From contig OY762209.1 of assembly GCA_963665295.1 (NCBI GenBank), positions 1,376,001 to 1,440,000 on the forward strand: a DNA stretch of 64,000 bases. Reading direction: 5' to 3'. The stretch is from Syntrophorhabdaceae bacterium (lineage in GTDB: Bacteria; Desulfobacterota; Syntrophorhabdia; Syntrophorhabdales; Syntrophorhabdaceae). The notes beneath the pieces were generated by a model, which saw nothing but the letters and a program-made list of their open reading frames with translations, ran no database searches and was not told where the DNA came from. Below, one piece after another: positions 7,289 to 29,257 of this stretch (its first letter is position 1; every line of letters begins with the position of its first letter). The translations under genes and the position numbers were made by a program.

Positions 7289-9151
7289 TTGATGAGGGTA
7301 AGACATGGCTTCAATTCCATAATGAAACTGATGCTGATCGGAGTTTTCTCCATATTCGGCATGGTGGTGACGGACGCATGCGGGGCGGGTCACGATCTGG
7401 TGAATCCGCCTGTTAAGGGTTATCCCAACGGTCACCTGCTTGTTTCAACCGGGTGGGTGCAGAAAAACATCGGGGCAAAGGATCTCGTTATCATTGACGT
7501 GCGTACGAGCGGGTACGAGGCGTCTCATATCCCGGGCGCCATCAACCTTGTCCAGGACCGGTTCAAGACGGGAGGCAAGCTGCGAAGCCTGAAGGACCTG
7601 GAAGCCGGGCTCACCTCGGCAGGCCTCAGCAAGGACATGAAATTCGTCATCTACGACGACCCGTCCAAGCCTTTGGGAACCGCGGGGTGGTTCTTCTGGC
7701 TGTTAGAGTATCTCGGCTGCACGGACGTACACGTGCTGGACGGAGGTTGGGCGAAATGGCTCGCCGATGGCGGGGCGAAACAGGCGGAGGTAGCGCACAG
7801 ACCGAAGGCGGGAAGATTCGTAGCGAAGTCGAATGGGTCCGTCTCCGCCCGGGCCGCGCATATCGCCGCAAAATCGAAAAGCACGGATTTTGCCCTGATC
7901 GATGCGCGATCTCCGGAGGAGTTTAACGGCTGGCAGCTTTACGGCGAGTCACGCGGGGGTCATATTCCGGAGGCCGTCAATATAAATTACCTGTCTTTTT
8001 ACAATCCCGACAAGACCGTTATGGAGTATAAGGAGGTGAAAAGCCTTCTTGAGTCACGGGGCATCACGCCCGACAAGGAGGTTGTTTCCTACTCCACCGA
8101 CGGCATTCGTAGCGGCAGCGTTTACTTTGTTCTGAGATTGGCGGGATACGAACGGTCCTCCAACTATGACGGGTCCATACGTGAGTGGTCTCAGGACGCA
8201 GCCCTTCCAATGGAGAAACTCGCCCGTTATGAGAGACTTGTGTACCCCGCATGGGTAAAGGACCTGATCGACGGTAAAAACCCTCCCACTTACTCGGGCA
8301 AAAGATTTGTAATTCTTGAGACCCGATATACCGGCTTTTCCATCTCGCAGCTCACATCGTCCAAGCAGACAGGCTACATCCCCGGGGCCGTATCCGTTCA
8401 CCCGTGTTATGTCGAGCACGGAAACGACACGGCGAAATATTACCCCCATTATTCCGTACCGGGCGACGCGAAGCTCCTACCTGCCGACCGGCTTCAGACC
8501 GCCCTCGCCAACCTCGGGATCACGAAGGACACCACGATCGTCGTGTATGGCAACGGCATGATCATTCCCATGACCGCCGCGCGCGTGGCATGGGCATTGA
8601 TGTATGCGGGCGTTAAGGACGTGAGGGTTCTTAACGGCGGTTTCACCGCATGGCAAGCAGCGGGCTACCCCGTGGCCCCGGCGCCTGCCGCTTTGACGCC
8701 TGCAAAAGACTTCGGTGCGCAGGTTCCCCTCAACCCTGAATTTTACGCAACAGCCGACTATGTGCGGTCGGTGGTTAACCACCAGAAACCCGCCGTGGTG
8801 ATGGTTGATGTGCGGAAGAGAGAGGAATTTGACGGCAAAACATGCCCATACCCCTTCTTTAACAGAAAAGGGCGAATACCGGGCGCAGTATGGCAGGGCG
8901 ATTGGGATGCCCTGGTGAACACAAAGGACGACACCTTCAAAAGCTATCCGGAGGTGCGGAAAATGTGGCAAAACCTGGGGATCACGTCTGACAGGGAACC
9001 TGTTTTTTACTGCGGCACCGGCTGGCGTTCCACGATCGGATTTTTTCAAGCCTATTTGATGGGGTTTCAGAAACTGAGAAACTATGACGGCAGTTTTTAT
9101 GACTGGAGCTCAAATGCCGGCAATCCCATTGCCGACGGCAGCACAAAGTGA
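7289..9151 (+). CDS. Exported four-domain rhodanese/sulfurtransferase (YnjE-like)
   Basis: Signal peptide, repeated HIPGA and LDGG/LNGG motifs, C-terminal active loop CGTGWR and YDGS..W. Confidence 0.9.
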   Translation: MMRVRHGFNSIMKLMLIGVFSIFGMVVTDACGAGHDLVNPPVKGYPNGHLLVSTGWVQKNIGAKDLVIIDVRTSGYEASHIPGAINLVQDRFKTGGKLRSLKDLEAGLTSAGLSKDMKFVIYDDPSKPLGTAGWFFWLLEYLGCTDVHVLDGGWAKWLADGGAKQAEVAHRPKAGRFVAKSNGSVSARAAHIAAKSKSTDFALIDARSPEEFNGWQLYGESRGGHIPEAVNINYLSFYNPDKTVMEYKEVKSLLESRGITPDKEVVSYSTDGIRSGSVYFVLRLAGYERSSNYDGSIREWSQDAALPMEKLARYERLVYPAWVKDLIDGKNPPTYSGKRFVILETRYTGFSISQLTSSKQTGYIPGAVSVHPCYVEHGNDTAKYYPHYSVPGDAKLLPADRLQTALANLGITKDTTIVVYGNGMIIPMTAARVAWALMYAGVKDVRVLNGGFTAWQAAGYPVAPAPAALTPAKDFGAQVPLNPEFYATADYVRSVVNHQKPAVVMVDVRKREEFDGKTCPYPFFNRKGRIPGAVWQGDWDALVNTKDDTFKSYPEVRKMWQNLGITSDREPVFYCGTGWRSTIGFFQAYLMGFQKLRNYDGSFYDWSSNAGNPIADGSTK

Positions 9152-10389: not shown

Positions 10390-12310
10390 CCGAAGTTCCC
10401 CGCCCAATATTAACCCATCACCTTGATATTCCAATGATTATGGCAGAAATTGATTTCCCGTTACTGGCTACAGTCCGAGGAGGGCAAGGGCGCGGGCCTG
10501 GAGAGGTGTCGGATCAGTAAGAAGGGTGAAGGCCGGGGCCATGGAGTCCAAAACCATCCTGCACCGGTTTTTGCATCGGGTCCCCAGTGCGGCAAGGAGG
10601 GTACGGAAGCTCTGGACGGGAAGGCCGTCAGGGGTGAGCTTGGTGGTCTTCTTTTTCTTTGCGGAAGAAGATGACTCCGCGGGCTTTACCGGGTCTCTCG
10701 TCGTTCGTGAGAGGGGAAGCTCCTCATCGTCGAAGAGCAGCGGCGTAAGGGCCTCCCTCATATGCCACTCTACGTAATAGGCGAGGGTGCAGAGAAAGAT
10801 GTGGGCTCGCACGTGATCCTCGGTACGGTGGTGAATGGGACGGACGAGAAGATCGATGCCCTTCAAGGTCCTGAAGGCCCGCTCTACCCGGGCAAGGTTC
10901 TTGTAGTTCCGTACCACATCGGCGGGAGGAAGGGCTGGTTCACTCGTACGGATCACATAGATCCCGTCGAGGGCTTCTTCTTCGGTGATTGACTCCTCGT
11001 TCCGGGCGAATGAGAAGGACCCGTCTCCGATGGTAAGGATAAAGTGCTTCGCCATCTTGTGATCGTTGACTACCGCGCCGACTTTCTTCCCTATCTCCGC
11101 TGCGGAAAGAGGCGTCCTTGTCCTTCTCCCGACCGCCCGTACAATGGAGGACAACTTCTTTTCCGTCACATCGAGGAGCGCGTTTCTTTTCCTCTTTCTC
11201 TCTTCGGCAAGAAGGGGGTTGAAGCAAGCGATGAGCCTTTCCCCCGGATACTCGGGAGAGGTGATTTCCGCAAAGTCCTGGGTATCGAAGAGGGACATCT
11301 GGATGCTCCCCTGTCCCACAAGCTCGCGTATGGCGGAAGACCTGAGGGCCGATATCCACCCTATGCCGGGCATCTCCTTTATCTTTGTAATCTGTGTCTC
11401 CGTAAGCATGCCCCTGTCGCCCACGAGGACGAGGTGATCGAGACCGAATCTTTCTTTGAGCTTTGCCGTCTGGTCGGGAATGGTAGAGGGATCGCCCGTA
11501 TTCCCCGGATAGACGGTAACTGCAACAGGTCGGCCTTCGTGATCGGTGAGTACTCCATAGACGATGATCCTCTTTCCCTTTTCATCCCGGTCATGGCCGA
11601 ACTGCGCAAGGGGACAGGTGTGGCCCTCGTAGTAACTGCTCGTCACATCGTAGAGCACGAGCGAGCCCTCGGTAAGGTGCTTATTCGCCAGCTTCTTCTC
11701 GATCCGCTCCTGTCTTGCCAAAAGCCAGTCCAGGGCATCATAGAGTTCGTCCTCATCGGCATCTGCAACCGAGAGTTCCTCCGCCACCGAAGTAGTATGC
11801 CAGAGCCTCGTAGTTGCTAATTTCGATGAGGGGTGGATGAGGCGTTCCACGATCATGGCGATTACGAGGTCTCTCTCCCTTCCAGGCTTCGAGGCAATGA
11901 CCGTATCAAGGCCAAGCTTCTTTATTGTCCCGAGTATGGCCTCCACATGGCCGTGGGGGAGAGACTGCTCAACCTTAAAGGCTTCCTTCGGAGAGACGAG
12001 AGACTCCCCTTTCAATACACGCCTCAAGAGCTCGATCTTCTCTTCCGGCCAATCAGTGAGGTTTGCGACTGTCTTCTTCTTTATCTTTTTGCCTTCCCTC
12101 CATGCCTCCCTCAAGAGGATGGCGGGCCGGGAGTTGCGGTTGGGGATGCTTTCGATGTACATGGAACATATATAGCAAATAGCTTACCTACATGTCAAGT
12201 ACATAATGCACTATTACATGGCAACAAGTAGAAGATATGATTATCACCCTATTCCCGTCATTTCAACGGGATAGAGTGATATTGGGGGGATTTCACAGGG
12301 GGAACTTCGG
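10390..12310 (-). mobile_element. IS1634-family insertion sequence, copy 1 (1921 bp)
   Basis: Terminal IRs ccgaagttcccc / ggggaacttcgg. 6-bp target duplication TTTAAT at 10384-10389 and 12311-12316. Confidence 0.92.
10468..12162 (-). CDS. IS1634-family DDE transposase
   Basis: YDVTSSYYEG, VGDRGM, Y..L..VERAFR.LK and RPIHH..E.HVRAHIFLC motifs. Confidence 0.92.
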   Translation of the reverse strand: MYIESIPNRNSRPAILLREAWREGKKIKKKTVANLTDWPEEKIELLRRVLKGESLVSPKEAFKVEQSLPHGHVEAILGTIKKLGLDTVIASKPGRERDLVIAMIVERLIHPSSKLATTRLWHTTSVAEELSVADADEDELYDALDWLLARQERIEKKLANKHLTEGSLVLYDVTSSYYEGHTCPLAQFGHDRDEKGKRIIVYGVLTDHEGRPVAVTVYPGNTGDPSTIPDQTAKLKERFGLDHLVLVGDRGMLTETQITKIKEMPGIGWISALRSSAIRELVGQGSIQMSLFDTQDFAEITSPEYPGERLIACFNPLLAEERKRKRNALLDVTEKKLSSIVRAVGRRTRTPLSAAEIGKKVGAVVNDHKMAKHFILTIGDGSFSFARNEESITEEEALDGIYVIRTSEPALPPADVVRNYKNLARVERAFRTLKGIDLLVRPIHHRTEDHVRAHIFLCTLAYYVEWHMREALTPLLFDDEELPLSRTTRDPVKPAESSSSAKKKKTTKLTPDGLPVQSFRTLLAALGTRCKNRCRMVLDSMAPAFTLLTDPTPLQARALALLGL

Positions 12311-16068: not shown

Positions 16069-18627
16069 TCACTCTTTGTACAATCGATAGCTGTTTCTTC
16101 CCGTCCTCTTCGCTTCATACATGGCGATGTCGGCCTTTTTTACCAGCGTGTCGATGTCATTGCCGTCCTGCGGGTAAAGGGAGACCCCAACGCTGGTGGT
16201 GACGGACACCTCATGGCCGGTCAGGGCAAAGGGGCTGCGGAATGTTTCAACAATCTTCCCCGCGATCACGTCTGCATAACCTTCCCACCCCACATCAGGG
16301 ATTATCACAAGATACTCATCTCCGCCCATGCGCGCTACCGTATCACCCCTTCTCAAAAGGTCGGTAAGGCGTTGCGCAACATTTATGAGCAGTGCGTCTC
16401 CTACATCATGACCGAGGGTGTCATTAATGTCCTTGAATCTATCAAGATCGAGAAGCATTACGGCGACTTTGTCTTTGTTGCGGTCGGCATTTGTCATTGC
16501 CAGAGTGAGCCTGTCGTTGAAAAGGGGGCGGTTGGGCAGTCCCGTCAGGGCATCATGGTAAGCGAGCCTTCTGATTGTTTGCTCCGCATCCTTACGGGCC
16601 GTGATATTTTCCATGGTTCCCTCGTAGTAAAGGATGTTTCCCGACTCGTCGCGAACGGACCTGGCGTTGATGGATGCCCAGATGGCGCTCCCATCTCTTC
16701 TGTGCAGCCTCGTTTCGAAGGCTTGTATGGTGTTGTTGTTTTCGAGGTTTTGCAGGTACTGCAAACGATCGGAAGGGTCCATATAGACCTCGCGGGCAAT
16801 ATCCGCACAGGCTTTGACCATCTCTTCCGGGGATGAGAATCCCAGCATTTTTGCCAGCGCCGGATTTGCGCTGAGAACACGTCCGTCCACGGTGGTCTGG
16901 AATATCCCCTCGATGGTATTTTCAAATATCTTCCGGTATTTTTCTTCGCTCCCCTTGAGCGCTTCTTCTGTTTCCTTCTTCCCCGTAATATCCCTCAAGG
17001 ATTCGATTGCGCCGATAGCATTCCCCTCTTTATCAAAGAGCAGCGAGGCGATTCCCCAACAATATGCCCCTTTACCATTGTATACGTTAGGCAGGTGGAT
17101 TTCGCCGTAGGTAGTCTTCCCTTTTCTTTCCACGAGGTCGTATAGCTTGTTGATCTCGGAATCAGGAGAAAACAGGAGATCGATGAGCATCGGCCTCCTT
17201 TTGCCGTAGAAAGGAACAGCGTAGTCATGATTGCCCTTCCCGAGCATGTCCTCCTTTCTTGTACCCGTCATTTCCTCCAGGGTTCTGTTCCAGGCAACCA
17301 CCTTCTTCTCGTTGTCGATGACAAAGGTTGCATCGGGGAGGAATTCGATAATATCGTGGAGCTTTCGGGAGGAGGTCTCCAGTTCCGCTGTCCGTTCCCT
17401 GACGCGGTTTTCCAACTCGCTATGAGCCTTGCGGAGGGCGCCTTCTGCTTCCTTCCGTCTCGTAATGTCTTCGTTTGTTCCCTCATAGTAGAGGACTGCG
17501 CCATCCCCGTCACGAACCACACGGGCATTAATCGAAATCCAGAATATGCCCCCATCCTTCCGGTACACCTCGGTTTCGAAACCTCTAATGGCGCCCTGCC
17601 CGGCAAGCAGGTTCTTAAATCTCCGCCTGTCTTCGGCGTTCACGTATATCTGGTTGCCTACGTCCGTAACGCCGGCCATCATCTCTTCTGGGGATGCAAA
17701 ACCAAACATCCGGGCAAGTGCGGGGTTGACGACAATAAGATGATCATCAACGGAGATCTGGAAGATCCCTTCTGCGGAGTTTTCGAAAATACTGCGATAC
17801 TTTTGTTCGGCCTGCCTTGCCGCTTGTTCTGCGTGTTTTCGTTCCGTCATATCCCGGAAGTACCAGACTCTCCCGTAATAATGGGCATCAGGCCCGAACA
17901 TGGGCGCCGAGTAGCGGTCAAATATTCTGCCGTCCTTGAGGAATATCTCGTCGCGGCTTGTTTCCTCTTTGTGGGCATAGAGTGCATTTACCCTGCAAAG
18001 AAACTCTTCGGGGTCCGCCAGTTTTTCAAACACGGACTGCAGGGTAAGTTCATCGGACCTTGTCTCCATGACATCGGGGGGAATCCCCCACATTTTGACG
18101 AATTGCCCGTTGTAAGAGAGAATCCTGCCGGTTCCGTCCACTACGAGAATCCCGTCGATAGATGCCTCCTGCTGCGTGGAGAGAAGTATGTTCCTGAATG
18201 CAAGCTCCGCCTCTGCTTTTTTGCTCTCAGTGATGTCTTCGCAGCTTACGAGTGTCTCGCCGGCGGCGAGTTCGACAGGGATGAAGCTGATGATCTTTTC
18301 TGCCCCGTCTTTGCACGTAACGGTAAAGATGCAGGGGGTCCTTTCGCCCTTTACGTGGGCGCGCCGATGCTTTTTCAGGTCATCATGCCACATGGAGACA
18401 ACCTTTCGTCGGTATTTTATATCAGGGTACGCTTTTCTGAACCACGTCCTCCCGTCGGGTATATCAGAAAGGTCATAGCCGAAAGTCTCCGTGAATTTGC
18501 TGTTGAGATACGTGTAGGTCCCATCCCTCGCAATAACCGCGATGCCGAAAGGCGCATTTTCGGTGAGAATATGGAAATCGTTCCGTCCGGAAGGGAGAAT
18601 ACCTTCTCCTCCCTGGTTTCTCGTCAT
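16069..18627 (-). CDS. Multi-PAS diguanylate cyclase
   Basis: Five PAS/PAC repeats, HDALTGLPNR, RRGD I-site, GGDEY. Confidence 0.9.
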   Translation of the reverse strand: MTRNQGGEGILPSGRNDFHILTENAPFGIAVIARDGTYTYLNSKFTETFGYDLSDIPDGRTWFRKAYPDIKYRRKVVSMWHDDLKKHRRAHVKGERTPCIFTVTCKDGAEKIISFIPVELAAGETLVSCEDITESKKAEAELAFRNILLSTQQEASIDGILVVDGTGRILSYNGQFVKMWGIPPDVMETRSDELTLQSVFEKLADPEEFLCRVNALYAHKEETSRDEIFLKDGRIFDRYSAPMFGPDAHYYGRVWYFRDMTERKHAEQAARQAEQKYRSIFENSAEGIFQISVDDHLIVVNPALARMFGFASPEEMMAGVTDVGNQIYVNAEDRRRFKNLLAGQGAIRGFETEVYRKDGGIFWISINARVVRDGDGAVLYYEGTNEDITRRKEAEGALRKAHSELENRVRERTAELETSSRKLHDIIEFLPDATFVIDNEKKVVAWNRTLEEMTGTRKEDMLGKGNHDYAVPFYGKRRPMLIDLLFSPDSEINKLYDLVERKGKTTYGEIHLPNVYNGKGAYCWGIASLLFDKEGNAIGAIESLRDITGKKETEEALKGSEEKYRKIFENTIEGIFQTTVDGRVLSANPALAKMLGFSSPEEMVKACADIAREVYMDPSDRLQYLQNLENNNTIQAFETRLHRRDGSAIWASINARSVRDESGNILYYEGTMENITARKDAEQTIRRLAYHDALTGLPNRPLFNDRLTLAMTNADRNKDKVAVMLLDLDRFKDINDTLGHDVGDALLINVAQRLTDLLRRGDTVARMGGDEYLVIIPDVGWEGYADVIAGKIVETFRSPFALTGHEVSVTTSVGVSLYPQDGNDIDTLVKKADIAMYEAKRTGRNSYRLYKE

Positions 18628-19029
18628 ATTTCGTCCCTCTGTCACGTTCGTGTCGTCAGGCGCCGGACAACGGTTTTCCGTTTCAAGTCCCTCCACCTTG
18701 ACGGTTCTACGTGTTATATTCGCACAAACAGGCAAAAGATTAAAGAGGCAAGGAGAACCCCGGGACCGCCTGCTGCGGTCCTCAAAGCTTCTCTCCCGGG
18801 GAGCTGCACGAACCGACTGCCGCACTATCGGCGTGTCAAGGGGTGGACAACCATGAGGAAGAACCGGGCGTCCTGTGCCCGGACATGGAGAAGCAATTGA
18901 CCATCAAGGGTGACCCGAAAGGCACAGCACGTCCTCTTCGATACGCACGGGGGTTGCCGAATTGACATTTGTGCTATATTTATTGGTAGGGATCGTCTTA
19001 AGATAATCCTGCTTCAGGGGAGGTACACC

Positions 19030-19692
19030 TTGGAACAAATCATAAGGGAATACAATGAAGCCATATTCGACACCGACCGTGAAAAGGCGCTGAAGGTTGT
19101 CCGTGACGCCCTTGATAAAGGCGTCAGTCCCGAACAGGTGGTGTTCAAGCTCGTCATCCCCGCCATCGAATCGATGATCAAGTCTATCAGCGAAGATGGC
19201 GATGCGAGTCTCGCCCAACACTTTATGGCCTCCCAGATAGGGGCGGAAGTGGTTGAAGAGATGATCCCCAGATTCGAACGTCGCCCGGACGTTATCGGTC
19301 GCGTGGTGATCGGGACATCCCAGGGGGACTTTCACGGACTGGGTAAGCGGATTGTCACCGGATGTCTGAGGGTCTACATGATCGAGGTTACCGACCTTGG
19401 ACTCAACGTTTCACCCGCGCGTTTCGTCGATGAGGCTGTTGTGCGCAACGCGCAAGTGATCGGCGTATCTTCCATGATGGTGCATACTGCCAGGGGGGAG
19501 AACGGATGTCTCAAAGTACGGCAGATTCTCGAAGAACGAGGTCTCGAGGACAGGATCAAGGTAGTTGTCGGCGGAGCGCCTTACCGTTTTGACCACGAGT
19601 TATATAAGACGGTGCATGCGGATGCCTGGGCAGAGAACGGCATCGTAGCGGGGAGAGTCATCACGGACCTCATCAGGGAGGTGAGCAGATGA
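19030..19692 (+). CDS. Corrinoid (cobalamin-binding) protein, cap + B12-binding domains
   Basis: RBS ggggagg before TTG 19030. GDFHGLG (DxHxxG), DLG.NV, VSSMM and VVGGAP motifs. Confidence 0.9.
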   Translation: MEQIIREYNEAIFDTDREKALKVVRDALDKGVSPEQVVFKLVIPAIESMIKSISEDGDASLAQHFMASQIGAEVVEEMIPRFERRPDVIGRVVIGTSQGDFHGLGKRIVTGCLRVYMIEVTDLGLNVSPARFVDEAVVRNAQVIGVSSMMVHTARGENGCLKVRQILEERGLEDRIKVVVGGAPYRFDHELYKTVHADAWAENGIVAGRVITDLIREVSR

Positions 19693-20732
19693 TTACGGGA
19701 ATGGAAAGGCTTGTTGCCGCAGTGAATGGAGAGCCATCGGACCGCATTCCCGTATTCTGCAACCTTTTGGACCAGGGGGCGAGGGAATTGGGTTTGTCTC
19801 TGAAAGAATATTACTCGAAAGGCGAGTATGTTGCGGAAGGGCAACTCAGGATGCGAGAAAAATATGGGTACGACAATCTATGGAGCCTCTTTTATGTGGG
19901 GAAGGAAGCCGAACTTCTGGGGTGCAGGAAGATAGTCTTCGCAGAGGACGGCCCACCCAACGTAGGGCAAATGGTGATCAGGACCTACGACGATGTAGAA
20001 AGACTGGAGATCCCCAATGATGTATCCGGCCATCCCGCCTTCCAGGAATCGTTAAAATGCCTTAGAATCCTTCGCGCCGAAGCAGGGGGCAAGTATCCTA
20101 TCTGCGCATACATCACTGCATCCATGACCCTTCCGGCCATCCTTATGGGAATGGAACGATGGATCGAACTGCTCCTCATGGGTCCGGTTGACGTTCGCGA
20201 CGAACTTCTCGCGAAATGCTCGGACTTCTTCCGAAAGGAAATCGCGGCCTATCGAGATGCCGGTGCGGACGTGTTCGTCTATTCAAACCCCTTCGGCTCC
20301 ACCGACTTCATCTCCATGAAGTTCTTCAAGGAGGTCTCCCTCCCGTGGATGGAGCGGGACTTCAAGGGGGTAGACACGGGGGGCGTGGTTTATTACTGCG
20401 GCAGCTCACCGTTCAACAACGTGATCGACACGGTGATTGAACGACTTGGCATAACGGCCTTTTATCTGAGTCCTATGGATGACATCGTCGAGGCAAAGCG
20501 GATAATCGCGGGAAGAGGGCTATGCTGCGGCGTTATCAACGATATCAAGCTCATCGACTGGTCAAAAGAGGAGATAAGAGGCGAGGTCCGCAGGATGATT
20601 GACCAGGGTATGCCGGGAGGGCGGTTCCTCTTTGGAACGCTGGTCATGCCTTATGGTATCCCCGAAGAGAACATCAGGACCATGCTCGGAGCGGCCTACG
20701 AATTCGGAAGCTGCAAGAACGGGCGGCAATGA
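19689..20732 (+). CDS. UroD/MtaA-CmuA (MT2) fold protein with degenerate Zn site
   Basis: ER..AAV.G.P.DRIPV N-terminus, EAELLGC and P.ENI..M..AA.E.G motifs. ATGA overlap with the corrinoid gene. Confidence 0.85.
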   Translation: MITGMERLVAAVNGEPSDRIPVFCNLLDQGARELGLSLKEYYSKGEYVAEGQLRMREKYGYDNLWSLFYVGKEAELLGCRKIVFAEDGPPNVGQMVIRTYDDVERLEIPNDVSGHPAFQESLKCLRILRAEAGGKYPICAYITASMTLPAILMGMERWIELLLMGPVDVRDELLAKCSDFFRKEIAAYRDAGADVFVYSNPFGSTDFISMKFFKEVSLPWMERDFKGVDTGGVVYYCGSSPFNNVIDTVIERLGITAFYLSPMDDIVEAKRIIAGRGLCCGVINDIKLIDWSKEEIRGEVRRMIDQGMPGGRFLFGTLVMPYGIPEENIRTMLGAAYEFGSCKNGRQ

Positions 20733-21301
20733 TGGCCGAGGAGCGGCTTCTCCTTGCGGGGTGCGGCATTCTGCGCAAAGAGATCAGGTTTCTCATTAAA
20801 AAGAACGGATGGCCCCTCGATGTATCCTTTCTTGATTCCGCCCTCCATGTCGACTTCGAGGCCCTCTCGAAGGGCTTGATAAGCGTCCTTGGAAGGCATG
20901 CAGGACGAAGAGTGATCGTTTTCTACGGCGCATGTCATCCCCTCATGGAGAGGATACTCGACGAGGCAAAAGTGTGCAGAACTCCAGGGCAGAACTGCGT
21001 GGAAATGCTCCTTGGCCACGAACTGTTTACCCGGGAGCTGTCGCAGGGCGCCTTTTTCCTCCTGAAAGACTGGGCGCGGAGATTTGACGTTATTCTGAAA
21101 AGAACATTAGGAAATAACGAAGCAGTCTGGAAAGCCGTGTATCAGGAGGACAGAAAATACCTTGCCTGTATCCGCACGCCCTGTTCCGGGGATTTCAGTA
21201 TTGAAGCCGAAGCGGCAGGCGAGAAGGTGGGGCTGCCCCTCAAGTGGATGGATGCTTCCCTCGATCACCTTGAATCGGTGTTGCACGCAATGGTAACATA
21301 G
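20729..21301 (+). CDS. DUF1638-domain protein
   Basis: CGIL..EI, LDSALH, YGACHP, NCVEMLLG and FFL...W motifs. ATGA overlap. Confidence 0.8.
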   Translation: MMAEERLLLAGCGILRKEIRFLIKKNGWPLDVSFLDSALHVDFEALSKGLISVLGRHAGRRVIVFYGACHPLMERILDEAKVCRTPGQNCVEMLLGHELFTRELSQGAFFLLKDWARRFDVILKRTLGNNEAVWKAVYQEDRKYLACIRTPCSGDFSIEAEAAGEKVGLPLKWMDASLDHLESVLHAMVT

Positions 21302-21318
21302 CAACGAAAAGGGACTTC

Positions 21319-22860
21319 ATGACCGAAATGATACACATAGGCAAAGATGAACTGAAGAGCCTGAAGGATCGTCTCGAAAAGCTGGCTTCGGAAAAATCGT
21401 ATCTCAATCTGCTTATCCACATGATGAGCAGATTAGGGACTGTGTCCGGCCTTGAAAACACGGTGGAAGCCATGTTGCAGGTGATTCTGAACAATATTGG
21501 CGGAACGAATCTTATCCTGTATTACTTTATTGACGATAGTATTTACTTCGCTGATGTTTTCGGTAAGAGGATGAAGCTCGATGTAATCGAGGACGCCTCT
21601 GTGAAGGAAGTCTTCCTGAGCCGGGAACCTGTCGTGCATGAACATGATTTCAACGACACGATGATGATGACTCCGGAATTTACAAAGGCAATGACCTGGA
21701 TATTTCCTCTTCTTGTAGGCTCCGATCTTGTGGGGATTTTGAAGATGGACGGAATGCACATGGGGACCGGCGCCTTGAGGCAACAATTGCCCACCTTCTT
21801 CAGCTATGCGGCCCTCATACTGAAAAACGTGATACTTGGGCACACGAGGCTCCGGAAGGCCTATGACGAGGCGCGGCAGACAAACGCGGAACTCATGAAA
21901 GAGATTGCCGAACGCAGGCGGGCAGAAGAAGCGTTGCTGAACAGCGAGGAGAAACTCAAAGCTGTTGTTTACGGGTCCCCGATCCCCCAATTCGTCATTG
22001 ACTCGGATCATGCGGTCGTCTATTGGAATAAAGCGCTGGAAGAAGTCACGGGAATCAGGGCATCGGAAGTGGTAGGCACAAGCCAGCACTGGCAGGCGTT
22101 CTACGGTACGGAGAGGCCCTGCATGGTTGACTTGATGGTAGAAGAAAGAGTTGAAGAAATCACCGAACTCTATGGGGAGAAGTGTACCACGTCAAAATTG
22201 GTGACCGGCGCATTTGAGGTTACGGACTATTTCCCCGCCCTCGGCGAGGGGGGGAAGTGGTTATATTTTACCGGCGTGGCCATTCGGGACGCCGGTGGGC
22301 GGATTATCGGCGCCCTGGAGACCCTGGAAGACATCACCGAGCGCAAACGACTTGAAGAGAAGTTGCTTGCCCAGTCAATTATTGACGAACTTACCGGACT
22401 ATATAACCGACGGGGATTCCTGACCCTTGCCCAGCAGCAGTTGAACCTGGCGGAAAGGGCGAAGAAACGGATCGTCCTCTTCTTTATGGACCTGGACCGC
22501 ATGAAGTGGATCAATGACACGCTGGGTCACCAGACGGGCGATGCGGCGTTGGTTGAAGTTGCGTCGGCCCTCCGGCAGACATTCAGAAAATCGGACATTA
22601 TCGGTCGGATGGGAGGAGATGAATTTGCGGTCCTTGCCATAGATGCCGCCCCTCACGTGGAAGAGACCGTCACACGTTTGCGCAAGTGTCTCGACAATCG
22701 CGCCGGGCCGGGAACAAGCGGATACAGACTCTCCTTGAGCGTGGGCGCGGCGCATTTCGACGCCCACAGCCCAACTTCTCTCGACGACCTCATTTGCGAA
22801 GCGGATAACCTTATGTATGGGGAGAAAAGAATGAAACAGACGGTAACCCCTCTTTCGTAG
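21319..22860 (+). CDS. Sensor diguanylate cyclase (GAF-like + PAS + GGDEF)
   Basis: DELTGLYNRRG, NDTLGH..GD, RKSD I-site, GGDEF. Lies 17 nt after DUF1638. Confidence 0.9.
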   Translation: MTEMIHIGKDELKSLKDRLEKLASEKSYLNLLIHMMSRLGTVSGLENTVEAMLQVILNNIGGTNLILYYFIDDSIYFADVFGKRMKLDVIEDASVKEVFLSREPVVHEHDFNDTMMMTPEFTKAMTWIFPLLVGSDLVGILKMDGMHMGTGALRQQLPTFFSYAALILKNVILGHTRLRKAYDEARQTNAELMKEIAERRRAEEALLNSEEKLKAVVYGSPIPQFVIDSDHAVVYWNKALEEVTGIRASEVVGTSQHWQAFYGTERPCMVDLMVEERVEEITELYGEKCTTSKLVTGAFEVTDYFPALGEGGKWLYFTGVAIRDAGGRIIGALETLEDITERKRLEEKLLAQSIIDELTGLYNRRGFLTLAQQQLNLAERAKKRIVLFFMDLDRMKWINDTLGHQTGDAALVEVASALRQTFRKSDIIGRMGGDEFAVLAIDAAPHVEETVTRLRKCLDNRAGPGTSGYRLSLSVGAAHFDAHSPTSLDDLICEADNLMYGEKRMKQTVTPLS

Positions 22861-22942
22861 CTCCCGGACCCTTTGCCGTAATAGCGAGCGTCTCCGGGCA
22901 TCTTTGAAGGGGAACCTGAAGCGCCGCATAGCGCCTTCTAAG

Positions 22943-24863
22943 CCGAAGTTCCCCGCCCAATATTAACCCATCACCTTGATATTCCAATGATTATGGCAGA
23001 AATTGATTTCCCGTTACTGGCTACAGTCCGAGGAGGGCAAGGGCGCGGGCCTGGAGAGGTGTCGGATCAGTAAGAAGGGTGAAGGCCGGGGCCATGGAGT
23101 CCAAAACCATCCTGCACCGGTTTTTGCATCGGGTCCCCAGTGCGGCAAGGAGGGTACGGAAGCTCTGGACGGGAAGGCCGTCAGGGGTGAGCTTGGTGGT
23201 CTTCTTTTTCTTTGCGGAAGAAGATGACTCCGCGGGCTTTACCGGGTCTCTCGTCGTTCGTGAGAGGGGAAGCTCCTCATCGTCGAAGAGCAGCGGCGTA
23301 AGGGCCTCCCTCATATGCCACTCTACGTAATAGGCGAGGGTGCAGAGAAAGATGTGGGCTCGCACGTGATCCTCGGTACGGTGGTGAATGGGACGGACGA
23401 GAAGATCGATGCCCTTCAAGGTCCTGAAGGCCCGCTCTACCCGGGCAAGGTTCTTGTAGTTCCGTACCACATCGGCGGGAGGAAGGGCTGGTTCACTCGT
23501 ACGGATCACATAGATCCCGTCGAGGGCTTCTTCTTCGGTGATTGACTCCTCGTTCCGGGCGAATGAGAAGGACCCGTCTCCGATGGTAAGGATAAAGTGC
23601 TTCGCCATCTTGTGATCGTTGACTACCGCGCCGACTTTCTTCCCTATCTCCGCTGCGGAAAGAGGCGTCCTTGTCCTTCTCCCGACCGCCCGTACAATGG
23701 AGGACAACTTCTTTTCCGTCACATCGAGGAGCGCGTTTCTTTTCCTCTTTCTCTCTTCGGCAAGAAGGGGGTTGAAGCAAGCGATGAGCCTTTCCCCCGG
23801 ATACTCGGGAGAGGTGATTTCCGCAAAGTCCTGGGTATCGAAGAGGGACATCTGGATGCTCCCCTGTCCCACAAGCTCGCGTATGGCGGAAGACCTGAGG
23901 GCCGATATCCACCCTATGCCGGGCATCTCCTTTATCTTTGTAATCTGTGTCTCCGTAAGCATGCCCCTGTCGCCCACGAGGACGAGGTGATCGAGACCGA
24001 ATCTTTCTTTGAGCTTTGCCGTCTGGTCGGGAATGGTAGAGGGATCGCCCGTATTCCCCGGATAGACGGTAACTGCAACAGGTCGGCCTTCGTGATCGGT
24101 GAGTACTCCATAGACGATGATCCTCTTTCCCTTTTCATCCCGGTCATGGCCGAACTGCGCAAGGGGACAGGTGTGGCCCTCGTAGTAACTGCTCGTCACA
24201 TCGTAGAGCACGAGCGAGCCCTCGGTAAGGTGCTTATTCGCCAGCTTCTTCTCGATCCGCTCCTGTCTTGCCAAAAGCCAGTCCAGGGCATCATAGAGTT
24301 CGTCCTCATCGGCATCTGCAACCGAGAGTTCCTCCGCCACCGAAGTAGTATGCCAGAGCCTCGTAGTTGCTAATTTCGATGAGGGGTGGATGAGGCGTTC
24401 CACGATCATGGCGATTACGAGGTCTCTCTCCCTTCCAGGCTTCGAGGCAATGACCGTATCAAGGCCAAGCTTCTTTATTGTCCCGAGTATGGCCTCCACA
24501 TGGCCGTGGGGGAGAGACTGCTCAACCTTAAAGGCTTCCTTCGGAGAGACGAGAGACTCCCCTTTCAATACACGCCTCAAGAGCTCGATCTTCTCTTCCG
24601 GCCAATCAGTGAGGTTTGCGACTGTCTTCTTCTTTATCTTTTTGCCTTCCCTCCATGCCTCCCTCAAGAGGATGGCGGGCCGGGAGTTGCGGTTGGGGAT
24701 GCTTTCGATGTACATGGAACATATATAGCAAATAGCTTACCTACATGTCAAGTACATAATGCACTATTACATGGCAACAAGTAGAAGATATGATTATCAC
24801 CAACTTTACATAATTTCAACGGGATAGAGTGATATTGGGGGGATTTCACAGGGGGAACTTCGG
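22943..24863 (-). mobile_element. IS1634-family insertion sequence, copy 2 (1921 bp)
   Basis: Same IRs as copy 1. Target duplication TCTAAG at 22937-22942 and 24864-24869. Confidence 0.92.
23021..24715 (-). CDS. IS1634-family DDE transposase (identical protein to 10468-12162)
   Basis: Identical 564-aa translation. Confidence 0.92.
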   Translation of the reverse strand: MYIESIPNRNSRPAILLREAWREGKKIKKKTVANLTDWPEEKIELLRRVLKGESLVSPKEAFKVEQSLPHGHVEAILGTIKKLGLDTVIASKPGRERDLVIAMIVERLIHPSSKLATTRLWHTTSVAEELSVADADEDELYDALDWLLARQERIEKKLANKHLTEGSLVLYDVTSSYYEGHTCPLAQFGHDRDEKGKRIIVYGVLTDHEGRPVAVTVYPGNTGDPSTIPDQTAKLKERFGLDHLVLVGDRGMLTETQITKIKEMPGIGWISALRSSAIRELVGQGSIQMSLFDTQDFAEITSPEYPGERLIACFNPLLAEERKRKRNALLDVTEKKLSSIVRAVGRRTRTPLSAAEIGKKVGAVVNDHKMAKHFILTIGDGSFSFARNEESITEEEALDGIYVIRTSEPALPPADVVRNYKNLARVERAFRTLKGIDLLVRPIHHRTEDHVRAHIFLCTLAYYVEWHMREALTPLLFDDEELPLSRTTRDPVKPAESSSSAKKKKTTKLTPDGLPVQSFRTLLAALGTRCKNRCRMVLDSMAPAFTLLTDPTPLQARALALLGL

Positions 24864-26611: not shown

Positions 26612-26617
26612 CGAAAG

Positions 26618-26708
26618 GTGAAAAGGGCAAACTCGCCGAAAGACGGGGGCGCAAAGCCGATGGCCTAAGGGGGTGAAGGGATTCTACCTATGGCGGCAGG
26701 GCTGCCGG
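26618..26708 (+). ncRNA. c-di-GMP-I (GEMM-I) riboswitch
   Basis: AGGGCAAAC-stem-GAAA tetraloop-GGCGCAAAGCC...GGCCTAAG...TATGGCGGCAGGGCTGCCG matches the GEMM-I layout. G20 and C92 equivalents are present. Confidence 0.88.
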
Positions 26709-26905
26709 TTCCCTTTGCCGGTTTCGCATTCCTCCTTGCTATCGATAGTATTCCCTAGGATATAACGGTATGAGCGTCGGCCAACGCCGGAAAAGCGGTG
26801 CTTTGTGGAGATAACGTGACCGGCGGAGTCGCTCTTGACATCCGCGCCCTGAGCCGGAATGGCAGTGAACTTGACTAATGACTGATTGATGGAGAATGTT
26901 TATCC

Positions 26906-27760
26906 ATGAAACTCGACTCATGGTATTTCAACCTTGCCTTTGCCGTTCTTGTATCCGTCTTCTTCGTTGCGGTGGCGCCCGTTTCCGGCTATCCGGAAGA
27001 GACGCTCCTTATCGGAGGCGCGGGGACAAACACCGGCGCCATGAAACTGATGGCCGAGGACTTTCGAAAGCGCCGTCCCCGTGCGACGATCGTGGTGCTC
27101 CCGAGTATCGGCACTTCCGGGGCCATCAAGGCCGTGGCCGAAGACAGGATTGATATCGGACTGACCAGTCGTGCCCTGAACCCGGAGGAGCGCGACGCGG
27201 AAATCATCGAGGAACCTTACGGTCAGACCGCCCTGATCTTCGGAGTGCCCCAGTCAAATCCGGCTGAAGGGCTGACCCTTGCGGAGATTGAGGACATATA
27301 TGCGCGGAAGCGTACTGCCTGGCCGGACGGAACGCCCATAAGGCTTATTCTTCGTCCCCAAAAGGATACCCTTTCCATATACCTTGCAGGCATCAGTCCC
27401 GGGCTGAAGTCTGCGTCCGAAAAGGCCCGCTCCGTGCCCGGGGTCTTTGTGGGAATGACCGACCAGGATGCGGCCGCTCAGATCGAGAAGACGCCGGGCG
27501 CCTTCGGGGTAATGAGCGCCTCTCTTATCTCATCGGAAAACAGAAGGATCAAGGCCCTCTCCGTCCAGGGGACAGCCCCTACACCCTCCAATGTGGCCGC
27601 CGGCAAGTATCCGTACGTCCTGACACTGTTCCTGATTTACAAGAGGGACAGGTGTAAGGGGGCGGTGAAGGACTTTGTGGAGCTTGTCTTTTCGAAGACC
27701 GGCAGGAACCGCCTCTATGAAACCAATCATGTCGCCCTGCCGCGAGCTACCAGGAAGTGA
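26906..27760 (+). CDS. PstS-like periplasmic substrate-binding protein
   Basis: Signal peptide, GGAGT, SIGTSGAIKAV, DIGLTSR.L and G.YPY...L motifs of the PBP2 phosphate-binding-like family. Confidence 0.8.
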   Translation: MKLDSWYFNLAFAVLVSVFFVAVAPVSGYPEETLLIGGAGTNTGAMKLMAEDFRKRRPRATIVVLPSIGTSGAIKAVAEDRIDIGLTSRALNPEERDAEIIEEPYGQTALIFGVPQSNPAEGLTLAEIEDIYARKRTAWPDGTPIRLILRPQKDTLSIYLAGISPGLKSASEKARSVPGVFVGMTDQDAAAQIEKTPGAFGVMSASLISSENRRIKALSVQGTAPTPSNVAAGKYPYVLTLFLIYKRDRCKGAVKDFVELVFSKTGRNRLYETNHVALPRATRK

Positions 27761-27772
27761 GGTGACAGCCCT

Positions 27773-29257
27773 TTGAACCTACAGCAGCCAAGACCGCCCA
27801 TTACAAGACTTATGAGCCATCTGGGAGCTTTGGCGGCGGCCGTTTTCGCCGTCACAATACCCCTTATATACTACTATTCCACTGTCGTTGAGATGCGCCA
27901 TGCCCTTGCGATAGAAACTGCCTTCTTCGCAAAGTCCGTTGAAAAGACTATTCAGGACAGCCCCGATATGTGGAGGTTCGAGAAGGCAAGACTGACGGAA
28001 CTTGCGTCGCAACCCTCTTTCTCGGGGAAACAGGATGAAAGGGAGATATGGACTTCAGGGGGCGCAATGCTGGTAAAGACCGATTTCGTCGCACAACGTC
28101 CTTGTGTGACTGTCCTGTCAACCCTATTTGACTCGGGGGTGCCTGTCGGTGAGGTCCGGGCGAGACGATCGATTCGCACCCCGACGCTCTACACCGCCCT
28201 GTTGGGAATCTTCAGCTTCTTCTTCGGTTATTTCATATATCTTATCTTCCGTACCTATCCCATCAGAACCCTCGATGGAGTCCTGGCCGACCTTCGCCTT
28301 GAAAAGGAAAGGACGGAAAAGACCCTCCAGGCCATCGGCGACGGGGTTATTTCAGTTGACTCCAGGGGAAGGATCAGCTTGATGAACAGAATGGCGGGAT
28401 CCCTTGTGGGTTGGGACGCCTCCGAGGCAATGGGGCGGCCTCTGGAAGACGTGTACGTCTTGCGTGACAGCCAGGAAGGCCTGCGCGGAGGGAAGGGCGG
28501 TCTCAATATTCTCGTGAGCAAGGAAGGAATCGAGTATGTTATTGAAGAACTCCGCACGCCCGTACCGGAGATGGAGACAGGCAAGGAAGGGACCGTCATT
28601 ATTTTCAAAGACATCTCCGGACGCGATGAGGCTGCCCAGGTGCGACAGAACAACGAACGGAGCATCGCGCGGTTGAGAAAAGGCCTGGGTGCGACGGTCG
28701 AGGCCATTGCCGCGATCGTCGAGACGAGGGACCCCTATACGGCGGGTCACCAGCGGAGGGTAGCCGATCTGGCGAGGGCCATTGCCACGGCCATGGGCCT
28801 CTCGGCCGACCGGATCGACGGCATCCGTATGGCGGCGAGCATTCACGACATAGGGAAGATATCCATCCCTGCGGAAATCCTCAGTAAACCGACGAAGCTG
28901 AGAAACACGGAATCCGAATTGATCAAAGAGCACCCCCGGGCGGGCTACGAAATATTGAAGGATATCGACTTTCCGTGGCCCATTGCGAGGATGGTTTTGG
29001 AGCACCATGAGAGGGTAGACGGGTCGGGATATCCGGAGGGATTGACGGGAGAGCACGTCCTCGTGGAGTCAAGGATTATCGCGGTCGCCGATGTGGTGGA
29101 GGCGATCGCCTCACATCGTCCCTATCGGCCCGCACTCGGGATCGACGCCGCACTGCAGGAAATCGTCAGGAACAAAGGCGTCTTCTATGATCCTGACGTA
29201 GTCGATACGTGCATTCAACTCATAAAGGAAAAGGGCTACAAGATGAAGGAGGATTGA
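27773..29257 (+). CDS. Membrane-anchored PAS + HD-GYP c-di-GMP phosphodiesterase
   Basis: Two TM helices, PAS, RDPYTAGH, HDIGK, HHERVDGSGYP, RPYR. Confidence 0.9.
   Translation: MNLQQPRPPITRLMSHLGALAAAVFAVTIPLIYYYSTVVEMRHALAIETAFFAKSVEKTIQDSPDMWRFEKARLTELASQPSFSGKQDEREIWTSGGAMLVKTDFVAQRPCVTVLSTLFDSGVPVGEVRARRSIRTPTLYTALLGIFSFFFGYFIYLIFRTYPIRTLDGVLADLRLEKERTEKTLQAIGDGVISVDSRGRISLMNRMAGSLVGWDASEAMGRPLEDVYVLRDSQEGLRGGKGGLNILVSKEGIEYVIEELRTPVPEMETGKEGTVIIFKDISGRDEAAQVRQNNERSIARLRKGLGATVEAIAAIVETRDPYTAGHQRRVADLARAIATAMGLSADRIDGIRMAASIHDIGKISIPAEILSKPTKLRNTESELIKEHPRAGYEILKDIDFPWPIARMVLEHHERVDGSGYPEGLTGEHVLVESRIIAVADVVEAIASHRPYRPALGIDAALQEIVRNKGVFYDPDVVDTCIQLIKEKGYKMKED

Follow-up and report, generated by a model that had tools for sequence, protein, structure and literature searches.

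A candidate cobalamin-based signalling cassette combining a corrinoid protein and a UroD-fold barrel with a GAF-like input domain

We analysed a four-gene operon at positions 19,030 to 22,860 of a 64,000-nucleotide stretch of DNA (hereinafter designated the window) from a Syntrophorhabdaceae bacterium of the phylum Desulfobacterota (assembly GCA_963665295.1, contig OY762209.1, positions 1,376,001 to 1,440,000). Its products are a corrinoid protein (CP), a UroD-fold barrel, a DUF1638 protein and a diguanylate cyclase that begins with a GAF-like input domain (hereinafter designated GAFX). The module formed by CP and barrel is, very probably, a signalling input to GAFX in one form or another, be it through the mechanism favoured here, as a redox or energy sensor, or as the synthase of a GAFX ligand. 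We further consider it probable that the cassette belongs to a light-independent class of cobalamin-based signalling, in which a methyl-transfer module (activase, CP, zinc-free barrel and DUF1638) lacking an acceptor acts as a receptor and the methylation or redox state of its cobalt is read by a dedicated GAF-family domain. Hundreds of proteins from several phyla, among them kinases, cyclases and phosphatases, would carry this domain, and the design would exist in at least three separate clades. The best single mechanism, which we favour tentatively, is that a methyl donor switches the cobalt state and that GAFX reads this state and sets the cyclase.

Organization and conservation of the cassette

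All four genes lie on the forward strand. The CP gene (19030..19692, 220 aa) has a TTG start with GGAGG just 5′ of it and is followed by the gene for the UroD/MtaA-fold TIM barrel (19689..20732, 347 aa), the DUF1638 gene (20729..21301, 190 aa) and the cyclase gene (21319..22860), which comprises GAFX, a coiled coil plus GAF-like domain (21319..21900, about residues 1-194), and a PAS and GGDEF part that forms the local output (21901..22860). ATGA overlaps join CP to UroD and UroD to DUF1638, and a gap of 17 nt separates DUF1638 from the cyclase. This arrangement, the GDFHGLG motif in CP, the intact GGDEF domain and the GAF-like N-terminus are present as described in the first-pass annotation of this DNA, which had missed the PAS domain of the cyclase. 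Pfam recognizes B12-binding_2 (E 1e-5), B12-binding (2e-20), URO-D (2e-47), DUF1638 (1e-26) and GGDEF (9e-36) in the operon; among the four proteins it detects no substrate methyltransferase, tetrahydrofolate (THF) methyltransferase, activase or catabolic enzyme, and no membrane domain. The only URO-D gene and the only DUF1638 gene of the host genome are those in the operon, and scanning the genome contigs with a single protein returned one locus. The ATGA junction between CP and UroD genes recurs in 52 of 60 representative homologous loci, and all four genes are under purifying selection (dN/dS ~0.08-0.15 against the nearest full locus, L026), which together argue that the arrangement is not a product of chance. 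A promoter/terminator scan of 18500-23100 was uninformative (2 and 4 sites versus 3.1 and 4.4 expected), and no cobalamin riboswitch reached the Rfam gathering score between positions 9000 and 27000 of the window.

To survey the relatives, loci were chosen by the UroD-fold protein alone, taking the best 80 of 201 metagenome matches and four genomes; at 90% identity, the resulting 84 loci fall into 66 clusters. The profile used for GAFX derives from GAFX matches, a few of which belong to these same loci, and does not affect the choice of loci. CP lies directly upstream of the UroD-fold gene in all 75 loci with at least 300 nt of room, and in 60 of the 61 loci with at least 1.1 kb of room a GAFX gene lies no more than 1.5 kb downstream (45/46 after dereplication at 90%); in the sole exception, L042, a REC-PAS gene takes its place. 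Each locus has one UroD gene. The output behind GAFX in the 50 GAFX-positive clusters is a kinase in 37 and an HD-GYP domain in one, with ten proteins cut by contig ends and two without an output; further signalling genes are found in 26 of the 35 long loci. The first-pass annotation had named as its refutation that such trios mostly sit with metabolic methyltransferases and no signalling genes; the trio sits with signalling genes and not with metabolic methyltransferases, and this condition therefore does not refute the proposal.

Co-occurrence at the genome level follows the same pattern. In one sample of 401 genomes from the host's phylum, the close UroD clade (at least 52% identity) is present in five and GAFX in the same five, which represent five families, kin not being independent; four further genomes contain a 30% UroD relative and no GAFX. 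The distribution is patchy: when G000 is included, two of 61 near relatives have GAFX. Two orphan GAFX kinases (L001:7953-11867 and L004:9129-11282) have no CP or barrel nearby; in the genomes that carry them, the cognate barrel clade was not found and a third-clade cassette was. Source names of the barrel homologs include Desulfobacteraceae, Geobacteraceae, Nitrospirae, Armatimonadota, Alphaproteobacteria and Anaerolinea. The cultured Geoanaerobacter pelophilus encodes a barrel of 76% identity (WP_214172688.1).

Predicted properties of the component proteins

CP consists of a four-helix cap and a B12-binding Rossmann domain, as assigned by Pfam. Its GDFHGLG motif spans residues 99-105, and the DxHxxG residues D100, H102 and G105 are kept in 53 of 53 homologs; T153, at the position of the Ser/Thr that contributes to the corrinoid-protein triad, is kept in 52. 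H64, C112 and H152 are conserved in a clade-specific manner. CP is closest to the methylamine corrinoid proteins (MttC/MtmC), and its nearest solved relatives are the methyltransferase corrinoid proteins 1y80, 7xcn and 3ezx. The W-(10)x-EH photoreceptor motif is absent from CP, whose sole tryptophan, W200, lies outside the cap. By the criteria of cap, Rossmann domain, DxHxxG and threonine, CP has the sequence features of a cognate corrinoid protein of the methyltransferase type, and it is predicted to bind a corrinoid and to cycle between Co(I) and methyl-Co(III).

The barrel is the most conserved part of the cassette, with a mean identity to the window protein of 68%, compared with 64% for CP, 56% for DUF1638 and 47% for GAFX. 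Its structural model (predicted local distance difference test, pLDDT, 94.3) best matches MtaA (4ay7; template-modelling (TM) score 0.83) and reaches 0.80 with HemE; MtaA is also its best sequence match in the PDB (E 1e-13). It scores 95 bits against a cut-off of 235 for the NCBIfam MtaA/MtbA model, and the HemE model of NCBIfam gives no match at E<=0.01. In the alignment with 4ay7, the zinc positions H/C/C of MtaA, which we take to be the H-x-C...C ligands, correspond to Y235/C237/T317, so that two of the three are lost; these three residues are conserved in 62, 62 and 64 of 65 barrel homologs. The stretch equivalent to the HemE N-terminal arginine motif, presumably RQAGR, reads CNLLDQG, with C24 kept in 63 of 65. 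Lacking both the arginine motif and two of three zinc positions, the barrel is neither HemE nor MtaA. Positions conserved at 95% or more, many of them aromatic, account for 24 of 54 residues at strand C-ends and 61 of 282 elsewhere, with strand ranges taken from the DSSP string of the model. The only longer form of the barrel found, in a weak search, is P0144 (720 aa); it contains two tandem copies, the first of which has lost several clade-invariant residues including C237.

In the chloromethane system, CdmB is described as a zinc-free UroD-fold substrate methyltransferase (MTI) with an aromatic cavity (PMC13222342). With this precedent, the component absent from the cassette is the acceptor methyltransferase (MTII) and not necessarily the MTI, and the barrel itself may be a substrate-binding, CdmB-like MTI. 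The earlier statement that no substrate methyltransferase is present holds for the operon by family and is unsafe as a claim, since zinc-free UroD-fold proteins are known MTIs (PMC13222342).

We screened the flanks of the 66 representative loci with Pfam (E<=1e-8) on 191 of 194 unassigned open reading frames (ORFs) of at least 130 aa, three antisense overlaps having been dropped. No member of the MtaB, MTTB or MtrH families was found among these 191 ORFs, and the flanks share no conserved gene for a transporter or a catabolic enzyme. The single pterin-binding protein lies in L026, 2.4 kb from CP behind a gene on the opposite strand, and is ~70% identical to the housekeeping AcsE-like proteins of the host, whose gene neighbours we take, by eye, to be CODH/ACS-like. 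Pterin-binding proteins occur in all five cassette genomes; the family is also present in 13 of 14 control genomes. The corrinoid reductive activase RACo, absent from the operon as the first-pass annotation had noted, does form part of the cassette in 15 of the 47 representatives that leave room for it, in 13 of them co-oriented directly upstream of CP. It is encoded somewhere in all five cassette genomes, the host copy (G000:C1:4927591-4929585) lying far from the operon. With RACo linked and no acceptor linked, the family appears to need Co(I) chemistry without a linked acceptor. In L020 (5592-7283), a gene for a MEDS (DcmR sensory)-PAS protein lies directly upstream of CP, a weak hint of one-carbon (C1) chemistry.

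DUF1638 keeps C12, C69, H70 and C90 invariant. Its model is confident (pLDDT 93.7), with Foldseek TM scores of at most 0.40 and a best VIA Z of 8.4 (root-mean-square deviation 2.5-3.4, about 100 residues aligned); we assign no fold, because the top VIA matches tie among unrelated alpha/beta folds, and Atlas comparison gave no usable match outside PF07796. DUF1638 is full-length in 35 of 50 representative clusters, partial in two and absent in 13, with at least nine changes in presence along the barrel tree (a count made without a shuffle control). L054 and L055 retain just the C-terminal 100 residues, and comparison with L026 (9044-9630) reveals that L014 (3742-3767), a close relative, has lost the gene by a clean deletion between short direct repeats located at either end of it. 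These absences indicate that DUF1638 is not an obligatory relay, and the earlier proposal that it transmits the signal to cyclic di-GMP (c-di-GMP) synthesis is not supported as stated. It is the only cassette part fused to outputs (P0006, P0017, P0248, P0275 and L024), and in Phaeobacter DUF1638 and a RamA-like protein/RACo are tied genetically to B12 Co(II) reactivation (10.1101/192971). DUF1638 is likely an accessory redox or reactivation partner, predicted to be dispensable in part of the family.

GAFX itself matches no Pfam family above cut-off over cyclase residues 1-194. It resembles GAF domains by Atlas features (0.97, a score uncalibrated for protein parts; all listed rows are GAF), and its homologs give weak GAF_2/GAF_3 matches and a hit to 3p01 at E 0.02. 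Clustering at 50% identity gives 431 members of the family with E<=0.001, of which 394 reach <=1e-10; the domain begins within the first 30 residues in 147 of the best 150 proteins and after a fused DUF1638 in the other three. The N-terminal region marked by EKSYL, singled out in the first-pass annotation, is a dedicated family that is found on HisKA, GGDEF, HD-GYP and SpoIIE outputs; five proteins carry it in fusion with DUF1638. Local searches of the best 150 proteins assign a histidine kinase to 103, GGDEF to three, HD-GYP to one and no output to 43, some of which are probably cut at contig ends; Pfam on 27 GAFX proteins (25 without a detected output and two DUF1638 fusions) adds two SpoIIE phosphatases and otherwise finds PAS/GAF strings. 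PocR domains are present in 4 of 23 GAFX proteins, again a weak C1 hint, and fused PocR is seen in P0019, P0021-P0023 and P0287. A 276-aa GAFX protein without an output domain closes a complete cassette at L017:7017-7844, and five loci (L022, L023, L034, L077 and L084) have two GAFX genes.

Among the best 150 proteins, no Cys or His is conserved at 85% or more in GAFX, which makes a heme, bilin or iron-sulfur GAF unlikely; the conserved residues are D79, D92, F111, F121, W127 and K142. The distance matrices of CP, barrel and GAFX correlate (rho 0.65-0.75), a reflection of co-inheritance that we do not take as evidence of contact. In the window protein, a PAS domain (residues 212-344, E 2e-10) separates GAFX from a GGDEF motif at 432 (Pfam 123 bits), with an RxxD I-site five residues before it and the upstream metal/GTP motif DLDxxKxIND at 391. 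With A-site and I-site intact, the protein is predicted to be an active diguanylate cyclase. The nearest relatives of the window locus, L014 and L026, have histidine kinases behind GAFX domains of 78-81% identity, so the cyclase looks like a local output swap. The output is swappable and mostly a histidine kinase, the cyclase being a rare variant, which removes c-di-GMP as the defining output proposed earlier.

Two distant CP-UroD clades (25-30% identity) also run into signalling genes. In clade B (Azoarcus sp. KH32C plasmid pAZKH, L119:7372-10839, and G279, L101:3652-7509), CP and barrel are followed by a kinase headed by a divergent full-length DUF1638 (hhalign 90.5%, E 1e-6) with cysteines at the C12, C69 and C90 positions; three other clade B loci showed no such kinase (the short L098, and L099 and L100 without CP). 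The clade B CP has an xHxLGKxI-type motif and the barrel H-x-A-S and D/E-N-H-G-E motifs, and the Azoarcus cassette adjoins formylmethanofuran dehydrogenase and quinoprotein genes. Clade C (Thiodictyon plasmid pTs417, L120:7332-12323; G447 and G048, L132:9072-13859 and L133:2680-8708) combines CP, barrel and RACo with a cyclase or kinase whose GAF-like N-domain is particular to the clade and shared within it. Between GAFX and the input domains in clades B and C, hmmsearch and hhalign (about 1%), with two to three sequences each, detected no homology.

Proposed mechanism and competing explanations

Under the mechanism that we tentatively favour, CP would bind its corrinoid base-off through H102 and be armed as Co(I) by DUF1638 and the ATP-dependent RACo, found next to CP in a third of relatives and elsewhere in the host genome. 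Like CdmB, the zinc-free barrel would channel a small hydrophobic methyl donor (a halomethane, a methyl sulfide or similar) to Co(I), with a methyl or small alkyl group passing from the donor to protein-bound cobalt. Without an MTII, methyl-Co(III) would build up instead of feeding metabolism. GAFX, having no conserved Cys/His for a cofactor of its own, would dock in a state-dependent manner on CP or on the CP-barrel complex, and the change would pass through the coiled coil and PAS domain to GGDEF. Reset could occur by back-transfer, by a host AcsE-like methyltransferase acting in trans or by oxidation. In the boldest variant of the wider receptor reading, the module would make a diffusible methylated signal that is also read by orphan GAFX receptors.

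Several points weigh against this mechanism. Its functional steps are drawn from genomic context and family knowledge. The barrel matches CdmB remotely (E 1e-4), and its conserved face could serve corrinoid docking only. A reset route for the cobalt state is not encoded in the cassette, and the host's AcsE-like methyltransferases, far from the operon, could serve as MTII in trans. GAFX diverges about twice as fast as its partners (mean distance 1.19 versus 0.58 for CP and 0.52 for the barrel), a difference not expected of partners that share a tight obligate interface, and a weak search found no CP-GAFX or UroD-GAFX fusion. GAFX also occurs without this UroD clade in two genomes, G048 (94% complete) and G447, both draft assemblies with a clade C cassette. 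Finally, the flanks extend for at most about 8 kb, 35 of the 66 representative loci reaching 10 kb.

One alternative, which we consider somewhat unlikely, is a redox or energy sensor, in which the barrel would be a non-catalytic shield or adaptor, RACo and the three-cysteine DUF1638 would keep CP as Co(I), oxidants or energy shortage would shift it to Co(II), and GAFX would read the ratio. In its favour, the barrel has lost two of three zinc positions, and DUF1638 is the only part fused to outputs, a divergent copy of it heading the sister-clade kinase; moreover, the Phaeobacter work ties two proteins to the reactivation of Co(II), namely RACo and DUF1638 (10.1101/192971). Yet DUF1638 is missing from 13 of 50 and RACo from 32 of 47 representative loci, whereas the barrel, with its conserved pocket face, is always there and exceeds all other parts in conservation; DUF1638 is a putative metal binder, and its model has no clear match to a known fold. 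A metabolic explanation is unlikely: a small or detoxifying methyltransferase with a substrate sensor of its own, as in the mec cassette, where GAFX would sense the substrate and CP and barrel would use a housekeeping MTII in trans. It can draw on the pterin-binding proteins of all five cassette genomes, on the existence of orphan GAFX genes and on the mec precedent of sensor kinase, CP, UroD-fold MTIs, activase and a protein of unknown function (10.1101/2021.08.30.458270; 10.1101/2023.11.10.566631). Against it stand the lack of an MTII, transporter or catabolic gene conserved in the flanks, the further signalling genes in most long loci, and the exchange of outputs between close relatives, with cyclases, an HD-GYP and SpoIIE phosphatases among the outputs of the family.

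We regard as quite unlikely a signal synthase with its receptor, in which CP and barrel would exchange a methyl group or a halide on a small metabolite and so produce the GAFX ligand. Contact between the proteins would then be unnecessary, and orphan GAFX proteins could eavesdrop. GAF domains commonly bind small molecules, and the six conserved GAFX residues, the orphan GAFX genes in two genomes, the five loci with two GAFX genes and the faster divergence of GAFX all fit this scheme; no second methyltransferase or substrate-supply gene is linked, however, and a protein complex would account equally well for the strict adjacency and for the DUF1638 fusions. Chance juxtaposition or mobile cargo, in which insertion sequence (IS) activity would have brought an orphan methyltransferase remnant next to a cyclase, is already refuted. 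Near-identical IS1634 copies (10390-12310 and 22943-24863) do flank a 10.6-kb segment, and the distribution is patchy, but gene order is kept in 60 of 61 loci, all four genes are under purifying selection, and UroD clade and GAFX occur in the same 5 of 401 genomes. The genome has 12 IS1634 copies, four within about 100 kb, and all eight with exact ends checked have duplications. Each flanking copy has its own 6-bp duplication, which identifies the two as separate insertions and rules out a composite transposon.

If the cassette is such a sensor, organometallic methyl or redox chemistry would feed directly into two-component and c-di-GMP signalling, which would offer bacteria a possible means of sensing halomethanes, methyl sulfides or a shortage of low-potential reductant. 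A conserved protein family now annotated as 'uroporphyrinogen decarboxylase' would need a new annotation, the unnamed GAF family, with its more than 400 clusters, would gain a role, and DUF1638 would have a test bed. The B12 sensor proteins found in the literature searched are photoreceptors, and parts of corrinoid methyltransferases have been read as metabolism. The window copy, with four small proteins and a cyclase read-out, is the easiest to test.

Genomic surroundings and known systems

Besides the operon, the segment between the two IS1634 copies encodes a TM2 protein, an arylsulfatase and a divergent cyclase (16069-~18627, reverse strand) with multiple PAS (PAS4) domains and GGDEF. This second cyclase, reported in the first-pass annotation, is present, but no close counterpart occurs beside homologous cassettes (best 32% identity), and its membership in the cassette is unsupported. 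A c-di-GMP-I riboswitch (26616-26709, forward strand; Rfam 65.9 bits) lies upstream of a PBP-like gene (26906-27760) and a PAS/HD-GYP gene (27773-29257); its position near two cyclases makes local c-di-GMP feedback possible.

Like the chloromethane system CdmBCA and the O-demethylases MtvB/OdmB/VdmB/MtoB (PMC13222342), the cassette has a free CP with cap and Rossmann domains, a zinc-free aromatic UroD barrel and, linked in 15 of 47 loci, an ATP-driven activase; unlike them, it has no MTII, its barrel forms a separate clade, and its next gene encodes a signalling protein with a GAF-like domain. With MtaA/MtbA, the partners of MtaC/MtbC, the barrel shares the UroD-type TIM fold and differs in having neither the zinc site nor an MtaB-type partner. 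The mec cassette of anaerobic dichloromethane degraders likewise unites a sensor kinase, CP, UroD-fold proteins, an activase and a partner of unknown function (10.1101/2021.08.30.458270; PMC9768040), and sensor-CP-UroD remnants, mecABC, exist (10.1101/2021.08.30.458270; 10.1101/2023.11.10.566631). Compared by description, mec has the MTII MecF, several MTIs, a response regulator and an antiporter, and the PocR domain of its kinase is assumed to be the substrate sensor (10.1101/2021.08.30.458270; PMC9768040), whereas our cassette has no MTII, GAFX as input and a variable output; neither a MecF-type MTII nor a second UroD gene, such as mecE in the syntenic mecA-J set, was found in the loci.

The photoreceptor CarH and the photocobilin cyclase AbDPcob share the B12 cap and Rossmann module, and AbDPcob controls a diguanylate cyclase (PMC10979010). 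These photoreceptors use adenosylcobalamin photolysis through W-(10)x-EH and are fused to their output (PMC10979010), unlike CP, a separate protein without a cap Trp that is accompanied by barrel and activase. The literature searched yielded no characterised link from B12 to a cyclase other than AbDPcob. The RamA-like (DUF4445/RACo) and DUF1638 pair of split methionine synthase also lies beside a CP (10.1101/192971; PMC12478193); in contrast to that system, the cassette has no homocysteine or THF methyltransferase, and its DUF1638 adjoins or is fused to signalling proteins. In Methanosarcina, MtsD/F/H are encoded near the sensor kinases MsmS, RdmS and MA4377, a proximity of corrinoid-methyltransferase and kinase genes also seen here, although those kinases control transcription of fused corrinoid-methyltransferases (10.1101/2021.03.04.434021), whereas the present cassette encodes its parts separately, with the signalling gene itself next in line. 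A published description of this combination was not found in the literature searched, which covered few subscription papers and no supplements. By its sequence features, the cassette falls outside three-component methyltransferases, MtaA, HemE, CarH-like photoreceptors and mec, and is predicted to work like the first half of an MTI-CP system.

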